Source of the DNA: Escherichia coli
GTDB taxonomy: Bacteria; Pseudomonadota; Gammaproteobacteria; Enterobacterales; Enterobacteriaceae
Direction: 5' to 3' (one strand)
Assembly: GCF_045037415.1 (NCBI RefSeq)
Contig: NZ_CP173438.1
DNA: 64,000 bases
A program made the position numbers. The first letter of the stretch is position 1; the number at the start of each line of letters is the position of its first letter. This document shows, piece by piece, positions 48,301 to 51,300 of the stretch.

Positions 48301-51300
48301 GCTCGATCAGGCTGAAAGTCTGGCAGGAAGATAATCGGTTGCACGTCGAAGTGGCTGACAGCGGCCCTGGACTAACTGAAGATATGCGAACTCATCTTTT
48401 CCGGCGGGCATCAGTGTTATGTCATGAACCGTCAGAAGAGCCCCGGGGAGGACTGGGATTGCTGATTGTACGCAGGATGCTGGTACTACACGGTGGTGAT
48501 ATCAGGTTGACTGATTCAACGACTGGAGCCTGCTTTCGTTTTTTTCTTCCATTATAACATCAGGCGGCATATTTTGGGGTGGTTATGTGTATCTGCCTTT
48601 GTAAAAGGGATACAAGTTCTGTAGTGGAGCACAAAATCAGGACACCGGGATAACCTGTTTCCACTTTTCTTCATGTAAGCAAGGCGGTAAACCATCGTTG
48701 TTCGTGTGAGGTCGATAAACGTTATAATATAACAACCATTAATCCACTGGTTTATATCGCGTACCGCATGGCTAAAATCACCATAACCACCTTTCGGAAG
48801 CCATTCACTTTTCAGGCTGCGAAAGACTCTTTCCATCGGCGAATTATCCAGGCCATTCCCTCTGCAACTCATACTTTGCATTACCCCATAACGCCAGAGT
48901 AACTTTCTGTATTTATTGCTTTTATACTGAACACCTTGATCTGAATGAAACAGCAGGCGGCCATCACGCGGTCGAGTTTCCAGTCCGTTACGCAAAGCCC
49001 TACACACCAACTCAGCATCAGCGGTTAATGAGAGGGCTGAACCGATAATCCGCCGTGAATATAAATCAACAACGAGCGCGAGCTAACACCATTTGTCCTG
49101 CAGGCGAATAAAACTGATGTCGCCGCACCAGACGCAGTTTGGTGCGGCGGGGTGAAATTGCCGGTTCAGTAAATTTGGCAATGGCGGACTTTTGTCTTCG
49201 TTTACCCGGTTGTGATGTTTAACCGGCTGTCGACTTGTCAGCCCTCATTCCCGCATCAGTCGTCATGCCAGCCACCGGCCTGCATCAACGCCACTCTGGC
49301 GCAACATCTGACTGATTGCCCGGCTACCCGGCTGCGCCACGACTGAGAGCATGGAAAGCCCTCACCCGGCTTCGTAATTCAATTCTTTGCACATTAACAG
49401 GACGCTTCACCTGCGCGTAATAAACGCTACGGTTAATACCGAATAAATGACAAATAACCCACACTGGCCACTTTGCTTTCAGCTGTGTGATTAGCGCGAC
49501 AGCTTCCCGGGGATTTCGCTCATCAGCACGGCAGCCTGCTTTAGTATTTCTTTTTCCATCTCAACGCGCTTTATCTGCGCTTTAAGCTGCTGAATTTCGC
49601 GTTGTTCAGGGGTAATAGCATTACCAGCTGGCTCAATACCCTGAAGTTCCTGCTTATACAACCGTATCCATTTACGCAAATGGTCAGGGTTGAGCTCGAG
49701 TGCCTGCGCGACTTCTCTGACATCACGCTGGTATTTAACCACCACCTGCTCGAAAGCTTCAAGCTTGAACTCCGGGGAAAAGGTACGTTTAGTCCGACGA
49801 GTTTTGATCATGCATCACCTCATTTTCACTGTTTTAACATTAACAGGATTTCGAGGTGTCCTGAATTACCGATCCACTACAAAGTACGACAGGTACTGTG
49901 GAGGTACTCCCGTAAAGACGGCCATCAAGCTCCCGCTCCGACATACCTGCGGGCAGAGGCCATGAAAAGCCAGCTTTGCGAAAGCGCACGAACATACCAC
50001 AAGCTGTTGATTTTGGTACGCCCAGGCGACGCCCGACCACAACCTGGGGTAAATGTTCTTCAAAGTGAAGACGTAAAGCTTCAGTGATCCAAGTCCGGTG
50101 TTTCATACGATAGTGTCCATTAAAAATGATGGACATTATTTTTGTAAAACCGGAGGAAACAGACCAGACGGTTTAAATGAGCCGGTTACATGTAATCCAT
50201 ACTCATCCAAGGTTTAATTCTGACACAATAAGAAAATATGGAAAGTCTCGCTCTAGAGATGGGGAGAGGGATATTGAAGTGTATGATATTCCAAGAACTG
50301 CCGGAGATATCCTCGTAAATGGATTTTCCAGTGCAAACTGATAACAAATTCGAAGTCATTATCTGCAACAAGATTGATTGATGTAGGGGATATGTTAGAG
50401 CATTATAATGCTCAAGGATTTGGCGTGATGACATCTGCGCCAATTGATGCGACACTATATGATAAACTGGATGCTATTTGCAGTAAGTGTAAAATAGAAC
50501 AAATAAATTTTTCAGTATTAGAGTCAGAACGCGCACTATATTATGACGATATATTAAGATGCCGTTACTTTGGTAAATAACATAAAATTAATCAATATGG
50601 TAATATATCAGTTGTAATTGATCGAAACAAAGCACATAAATGCCATCTTAGAAAGATGGTGTTTTTTAAGCATATAAAATATATTTTCTATAAGATATAG
50701 GGCAAACTAAATTTCTTGACTTCTATGATGGACTAACTAGATATACATGCCGCCAGTTTTTATAAAACGACGGCATATATAATCATTTATATATCTTTTG
50801 ATTTTATTCGTAACCACTCATGTTGATCTAAACCTATTCTTGACAGATTAGCAACAATATCAGTTGTTATTTTTTGCGCGTACGTTGTTTTTATTTCCCC
50901 GATCCATTTCAATACTTTTGGAGTAGATATTTTTTCAACGAGTAAAGGAACGAATGAGATATAGTCAGTATTAACTAGATTGTTCTTTTTCCCTATGATG
51001 ACACCGTTTCCATTTTCGACTCCAAATGAAAATGAAATAATATTAGAAGCTTTTGCCGGCATTTTAATTTTATAAAAACCGCCATATTCATCTTCGATTA
51101 ACAAATTGTAATTATTATCGTCCAGTGTTCCCCTGAGGAATAAAAAATCGGCTTTTTCATGCAATCTGACGCTATCACATAATGGTTGTATGCATAGATA
51201 GACAAAATTATATGCATCTAAAAGTAAAGTTCCTTGTTTTAAGGACACATTATCTATATGAGAATGATATCTTAAACTCCTGCGCGTGATTTCCAGAGAG

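Follow-up and report, generated by a model that had tools for sequence, protein, structure and literature searches.

A defective ISKpn37-like element abutting the truncated left end of an IS66-family element in an Escherichia coli hly-cnf1-pap island

Within a 64,000-nucleotide stretch of Escherichia coli DNA (RefSeq assembly GCF_045037415.1, contig NZ_CP173438.1), the whole of which is referred to here as the window, two unrelated insertion sequences lie end to end. With high confidence we read the region as a non-functional composite scar, in which, most likely, a junction formed between the two and the DNA on one side of it was subsequently lost. It is best described as an IS3-family element that abuts a truncated IS66 left end and whose other side is the boundary of a deletion or recombination event. 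In the following sections we will describe the two elements, the junctions between them and their surroundings, and the distribution of the composite.

The IS3-family element

By its terminal repeats and its alignment to copies of ISKpn37, the segment 48620..49881 (1262 bp, minus strand) is an ISKpn37-like member of the IS3 family, and it is defective. The left inverted repeat, on the orfA side (49855..49881, minus strand; TGTAGTGGATCGGTAATTCAGGACACC), is the same as in intact ISKpn37 copies. The right one, on the orfB side (48620..48646, plus strand), was located by comparison of the two termini and reads TGTAGTGGAGCACAAAATCAGGACACC inwards. When TGTAGTGGAGCACAAAATCAGGACACC is set against TGTAGTGGATCGGTAATTCAGGACACC, the latter being the reverse complement of the end at 49881, 22 of the 27 positions match, including all of the first nine. 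The repeats are thus imperfect and of the 5'-TG...CA-3' type, with TGTAGTGG at both ends. The limits are fixed independently by copies in unrelated contexts, which start exactly at 48620 and stop exactly at 49881, four related copies being flush with both ends in the alignment. A 1262-bp IS3-family element bounded by imperfect repeats at 48620 and 49881 had been proposed in an earlier note on this DNA, and both the repeats and the unrelated copies bear this out.

The closest relatives are 1253-bp copies on plasmids of Klebsiella, Citrobacter, Enterobacter and Raoultella, for example pKPC_CAV1099, to which the window copy is 97.1% identical at the nucleotide level from end to end, with the same repeats (TGTAGTGG...CCACTACA) and the same layout of orfA and orfB in the -1 frame. 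These plasmid copies are labelled by PGAP as "IS3-like element ISKpn37 family transposase"; as used here, ISKpn37 and ISCro1 are names that derive from PGAP labels on related copies and not from ISfinder entries. The window copy differs from ISKpn37 in three respects: insertions of 3, 1 and 5 bp bring it to 1262 rather than 1253 bp, its orfB carries three stops and two frameshifts, and it lacks the target duplication of 3-4 bp that accompanies intact copies.

Two genes are arranged as is typified by the family, orfA (helix-turn-helix) being followed by an overlapping orfB (DDE/rve) in the -1 frame. The first is intact (49491..49811, minus strand), encoding 106 amino acids with a Pfam match to HTH_Tnp_1 (PF01527, E=3.5e-17). 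The orfB remnant, a DDE/rve transposase gene at 48640..49560 on the minus strand, was traced by three-frame translation and alignment to ISKpn37 and its coordinates were checked. Its conceptual product matches the NCBIfam IS3 transposase model NF033516 (E=7e-78, model positions 93-365), and the reconstructed OrfB matches the Pfam families rve (PF00665, E=1.2e-21), HTH_21 and rve_3. The overlap of the two frames begins at a run of five A residues, GGAAAAAG (49551..49555, minus strand), which the frame geometry marks as a candidate site of programmed -1 frameshifting. The related copy in E. coli CE10 carries the PGAP note "programmed frameshift."

Lesions were scored relative to three intact ISKpn37 copies, by alignment, and all are given on the minus strand. 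The one in orfA is an in-frame duplication of GGT (+3 bp, 49744-49746). Within orfB we find an extra G at 49327-49329 (a +1 frameshift), a CGA codon changed to the stop TGA at 49263-49265, a TGC codon changed to TGA at 49245-49247, a TAT codon changed to TAG at 49083-49085, and a second frameshift caused by a 5-bp insertion at approximately 48730-48734. The TAG follows WCGDISFIRLQDKWC and lies after the WCGD motif. An in-frame stop after this motif had been noticed previously and is indeed present; the motif itself reads WCGDISFI rather than WCGDITYI, and two more stops and the two frameshifts must be added. With three nonsense codons and two frameshifts in orfB there is no open frame from which OrfAB could be produced, so that this copy is unable to make its own transposase. 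In strains 536 and UTI89 the gene is likewise flagged by PGAP as "frameshifted; internal stop."

A further relative is found between papX and papG in E. coli CE10 (O7:K1). It is 95.9% identical to the window IS3 element and has the same TAT-to-TAG nonsense codon, together with at least 10 other substitutions that the two copies have in common and that set them apart from plasmid ISKpn37. It differs from the window copy in lacking the two TGA stops and both frameshifts, in occupying a different locus, and in a G-to-A change in its terminal TG.

The IS66-family stub

Immediately beyond position 49881 lies the left end of a second element, a 308-bp stub (49882..50189, minus strand) recognized by alignment to a complete, ISCro1-like copy of 2699 bp. 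With blastn, 49884-50189 aligns at 90.9% to positions 4001-4306 of L002, the left end of the complete element. The stub terminates at 50189 with the 5'-GTAA inverted repeat (GTAACCGGCTC...) that is expected of the IS66 family; this left repeat, GTAACCGGCTCATTTAAACCGTCTGGTC (50162..50189, minus strand), pairs with GTAAGCGACTCGTCAGAACCGTATTGAT at the far end of the complete copy. The end of the fragment had been placed at 50190 before, one base beyond the GTAA terminus. Over 1700 E. coli genomes and over 1200 plasmids contain related left ends, the similarity of which stops at about 50189.

The coding part of the stub (49882..50136, minus strand) comprises codons 1-85 of the 225 of a long TnpA, as judged from the open reading frame, the profile match and the protein alignment, and amounts to the N-terminal helix-turn-helix-like extension only. 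In the full-length TnpA this extension covers residues ~13-85 and the canonical IS66 TnpA/HTH_Tnp_1 domain residues 102-219; the latter is gone here. The 85 residues match the NCBIfam model NF038385 (IS66-like accessory protein TnpA) with E=1.1e-23, the match covering positions 1-69 of the 190 in the model. Its score of 83.8 bits falls below the whole-protein cut-off of 150 bits because only 85 of 225 residues are left; a full-length relative scores 295.8 bits. In every genome inspected, PGAP annotates 49858-50136 as [quoted passage not shown] The reading frame that opens at 50136 does not end with the stub; it runs through into the IS3 repeat and stops at 49840, giving a chimeric product of 98 amino acids.

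The complete copy used for comparison is located in E. coli EC958, upstream of afa/dra. It is 2699 bp in length, has GTAA-type inverted repeats at both ends, and is bordered on both sides by the 8-bp duplication TCTGAATA; tnpA is followed by tnpB and tnpC, the last labelled "ISCro1 family transposase." The stub resembles it in the left repeat (GTAACCGGCTCATTTAAACCG...), in the leader and in TnpA, where residues 1-84 are 87% identical to those of the 225-aa protein, and the nucleotide identity is approximately 91% over 306 bp. It retains 308 of the ~2699 bp, having lost TnpA residues 86-225, tnpB, tnpC and the right repeat. Since the window has only the N-terminus of tnpA out of the tnpA-tnpB-tnpC set, what it holds is, by its terminus and its TnpA homology, a fragment of an IS66-family member rather than a complete element. 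Given only 91% identity to ISCro1-family copies, the stub may represent a distinct, differently named relative within the family.

In the earlier note the same segment had been read as the N-terminal helix-turn-helix of an IS21-type IstA, into whose 5' end the IS3 element had inserted to give a simple nested pair. An HTH-like reading frame does begin at 50136, directly beyond the IS3 end, and the N-termini of some IS21-family IstA proteins may have a similar helix-turn-helix followed by an "SWPLP"-like motif. The likeness to IS21 is only general, being that of a short N-terminal helix-turn-helix segment close to the end of an IS. Against the IS66 TnpA match at E=1e-23, searches of the NCBIfam and Pfam profiles returned no IS21 model at E<=10. 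A search of ~5.8 billion proteins yielded 83 homologues, none of them named IS21; every named one is an IS66-family accessory protein. The close relative in EC958 has tnpB and tnpC downstream, and the region contains no reading frame or annotation for the helper ATPase IstB. The terminus is GTAA, instead of the 5'-TG with multiple terminal repeats of IS21 elements. Moreover, no target duplication accompanies the IS3 element, and non-IS DNA borders it on the far side. The IS21 istA label for 49882-50136 was accordingly rejected, and we regard the nested IS3-in-IS21 reading as practically untenable. One part of the earlier description remains valid, namely that 49882-50136 is separate from the IS3 element and forms the 5' part of a different, truncated IS.

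The IS21 reading had also drawn on TGTCCAT repeats. The motif is present as a single inverted pair, TGTCCAT (50114-50120) and ATGGACA (50129-50135), with an 8-nt spacer; the pair as a whole (50114..50135) spans the leader and first codons of the annotated tnpA, 54-75 bp inside the IS66 end. It is conserved in IS66-family copies and identical in the leader of the complete ISCro1-like copy; it is a feature of the IS66 leader rather than an IS21-like repeat.

Junctions and origin of the scar

On the orfA side, the IS3 element passes cleanly into codon 85 of tnpA, and on the orfB side its end meets the 3' tail of a sensor-kinase gene with equal precision. The latter flank is the 62-bp tail (48558..48619, plus strand) that follows the stop of the sensor histidine kinase, and it has no similarity to IS66 by blastn. 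Read in the orientation of the IS, ...GTACTT is the end of the upstream flank and GAACTTGTATCC... the start of the downstream one, such that the bases next to the element are CTT and GAA and there is no target duplication of 3-4 bp. The three intact ISKpn37 copies have duplications of GAAC, ATC and GGC. The absence of a duplication here suggests a later rearrangement and is not an argument against membership of the IS3 family; within the island, it shows where the boundary of a deletion or recombination event lies.

A blastn search of the window did not recover the other ~2.4 kb of the ISCro1-like element (TnpA residues 86-225, tnpB, tnpC and the right repeat). Other IS66-family pieces at 28063-29627 and 58398-58692 were considered as the missing remainder and rejected as different elements, having 68-74% identity and both the wrong position and the wrong orientation. 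The proposal of a nested insertion thus holds as far as the clean junction at tnpA codon 85 is concerned, and fails in that there is no duplication, the other flank is the kinase tail, and the remainder of the IS66 element is missing from the window.

The unrelated flanks, the lack of a 3-4 bp duplication and the missing ~2.4 kb of IS66 together make a two-step history the most likely one. A transposase-made junction would first have formed between an end of ISKpn37 and tnpA. The DNA on one side would then have been lost, either by recombination between two directly repeated copies of ISKpn37 or, alternatively, by an adjacent deletion mediated by the IS end. As both IS3 termini are exact, these two routes are favoured over random deletion.

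The order of events might also be reversed. ISKpn37 could have been situated downstream of the kinase first, its orfA-side end later attacking a nearby ISCro1-like tnpA, and an adjacent deletion removing the intervening DNA along with the distal 2.4 kb of IS66; the IS3 element would then never have inserted within an intact IS66 element. Several observations are congruent with this order. The two ends of the IS3 element are exact at the single-base level and lack a target duplication, and every E. coli that matches the kinase 3' end, among the matches listed, has the kinase-IS3 junction. In addition, no genome was found with the pre-deletion intermediate, that is, ISKpn37 within an otherwise complete ISCro1-like tnpA. 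The query for this intermediate was a chimera of tnpA beyond codon 85 and the orfB-side IS3 end. The sole match covering both halves of it proved to be a complete ISCro1 that had an unrelated IS3 fragment roughly 0.5 kb from it, and was dismissed as a chance neighbourhood. The lack of such an intermediate weighs against the favoured two-step history as well. The sequence fits equally well, however, an insertion into tnpA with later loss of DNA from the kinase side, or a recombination event involving two copies of ISKpn37. Elements of the IS3 family transpose by a copy-out-paste-in mode via circular intermediates, which counts against an adjacent deletion, and adjacent deletions are not known as a hallmark of the family. 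On balance we consider the kinase-side origin possible but doubtful.

Three further comparisons concern the same ends. In plasmid paralogues of the kinase, at 74% identity, the similarity is lost 15 bp after the stop codon, and neither these nor the E. coli matches listed revealed an empty site downstream of the kinase. No obvious mosaic pattern of the kind that would mark recombination between two copies is visible in the IS3 alignment. Second matches to an IS3 end, 104-107 bp in length and present in many genomes, were set aside as remnants of a different insertion that lies beside papX and is cut by IS1 in Nissle 1917, and that has no relation to this junction.

In the favoured history, a junction at tnpA followed by loss of the DNA on one side, the IS3 element would subsequently have decayed in place and been inherited with the hly-cnf1-pap island.

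Island context, distribution and residual activity

The window and the hly-cnf1-pap pathogenicity island of uropathogenic E. coli are collinear, and the IS region is 99-100% identical to that of strains 536, UTI89 and NU14 and of many ST131 genomes. The genes to the left of the IS3 element encode a two-component system, and that of the sensor kinase ends at 48557; to the right of the stub, a gene cluster on the minus strand starts at 50787. Of 5426 complete E. coli genomes, 191 contain the whole composite. The junction of kinase and IS3 occurs in 282 genomes (at least 80% query coverage), in some of which the IS3 element is further truncated. This distribution indicates that the scar is old relative to the spread of the island and has been inherited with it.

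A 2021 study of ST131 virotype E described "ISKpn37, histidine kinase, hlyCABD/cnf1 ... IS682" in GI-pheU (PMC8386418). ISKpn37 has therefore already been named in print at this locus, and the feature is real, ordinary and already annotated. The value of the present analysis lies mainly in annotation, in that the family of the neighbouring fragment changes from IS21 to IS66 (ISCro1-like) and the lesions are listed exactly. The composite is also a convenient clonal marker, given its presence in 191 of 5426 complete genomes and in strains such as 536, UTI89 and ST131 virotype E.

The 98-codon chimeric reading frame (49840-50136), which consists of the HTH-like N-terminal part of TnpA and 13 codons from the IS3 repeat, could conceivably still be functional, for instance by regulating ISCro1-like elements in trans at other sites in the genome. 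The frame is open, has kept its native leader with the inverted pair, and shows 100% conservation in many genomes; a large number of E. coli contain several copies of ISCro1-like elements, at up to 18 places per genome. Its conservation is, however, accounted for by recent clonal inheritance of the island, the flanks being also 99-100% identical, and the product lacks the canonical IS66 TnpA domain (residues 102-219). There is no consensus promoter on the strand of the reading frame within the stub. A scan for promoters and terminators was uninformative, with promoter-like sites rarer than in shuffled sequence. We consider a retained function very improbable.

The TAG codon common to the window copy and that of CE10 could mean that an intact relative mobilized an already defective IS3 element in trans, in which case "dead" copies would stay mobile in the islands of uropathogenic strains. 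Separately, the TnpA stub might act on ISCro1-like elements. These suggestions appear improbable, and we offer them as speculation.

The earlier note had regarded the region as part of repeated IS-on-IS insertion in the island, and here it agrees with the annotation of UTI89, in which IS110-like ISEc45 adjoins a truncated IS66-family element at ~26.2-30.0 kb and a fragment of ISEc16 lies at ~30.4-31.3 kb. A fragment of an IS66 tnpC is annotated there as well.

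Variants of the ISKpn37-like element

The defective ISKpn37-like element of the window (48620-49881, minus strand) occurs in two lengths. The 1262-bp version is shared with strain 4/0 and many ST131 genomes, while the copy in UTI89, 536 and related genomes is 1257 bp long, that is, 5 bp shorter, and 99.1% identical. Five additional base pairs at 48730-48734 are a candidate for this difference.

A further ISKpn37-like copy is found in E. coli CE10, between papX and papG (positions 2501-3753 of the extracted locus). It has in common with the window copy the TAT-to-TAG nonsense codon in orfB (window 49083-49085) and several lineage-specific substitutions. 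The two copies occupy different loci; this sequence comparison suggests that a defective copy was mobilized in trans, or that gene conversion took place. Among the matches listed, several genomes carry an unannotated remnant of 104-107 bp from the orfB-side end of the element. The genomic setting of this remnant was inspected in one genome, E. coli Nissle 1917, where it (positions 3001-3104 of the extracted locus) adjoins papX and ends at an IS1A that truncates it.

The IS66 junction and other insertion sequences

At the junction with the ISCro1-like IS66 stub (49882-50189, minus strand), the TnpA N-terminus reads on into the IS3 inverted repeat, giving a chimeric ORF of 98 codons (49840-50136, minus strand). 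As a consequence, the tnpA pseudogene called by PGAP (49858-50136) overlaps the IS3 element by 24 bp.

Two other regions with IS66-family sequences were considered in relation to the stub. On the basis of collinearity with UTI89, the region at approximately 26179-31250 contains the IS110-like ISEc45 and an adjoining IS66-family element; the latter comprises tnpA, tnpB and a tnpC that lacks its C-terminal end. A truncated ISEc16 of the IS3 family comes next. With no more than about 74% identity to the ISCro1-like stub, the IS66-family element of this region is a different one. A C-terminal fragment of an IS66-family tnpC, adjoining cdiI/cdiA (58398-58692, minus strand), exhibits 69% identity to the tnpC of ISCro1; it does not represent the portion that the stub has lost.

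Neighboring genes

An intact ORF of 490 amino acids (47085-48557, plus strand) encodes a sensor histidine kinase. It is likewise intact in UTI89, but the annotation of E. coli 536 marks it as frameshifted. Paralogues with 74% identity are located on plasmids of ETEC, Shigella and Klebsiella. Directly to the right of the IS66 stub lies a cluster of three genes (50787-56479, minus strand), the products of which are a 555-residue protein with the Pfam domain Response_reg_2, a 986-residue protein with HATPase_c_3, HEF_HK and HATPase_c domains, and a 348-residue protein whose ORF is collinear with a DNA cytosine methyltransferase in UTI89. The cluster looks like a methyltransferase-linked, conflict-system-like module. 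PADLOC returned a single match here, a weak hit to REase_II at the N-terminus of the 986-residue protein.
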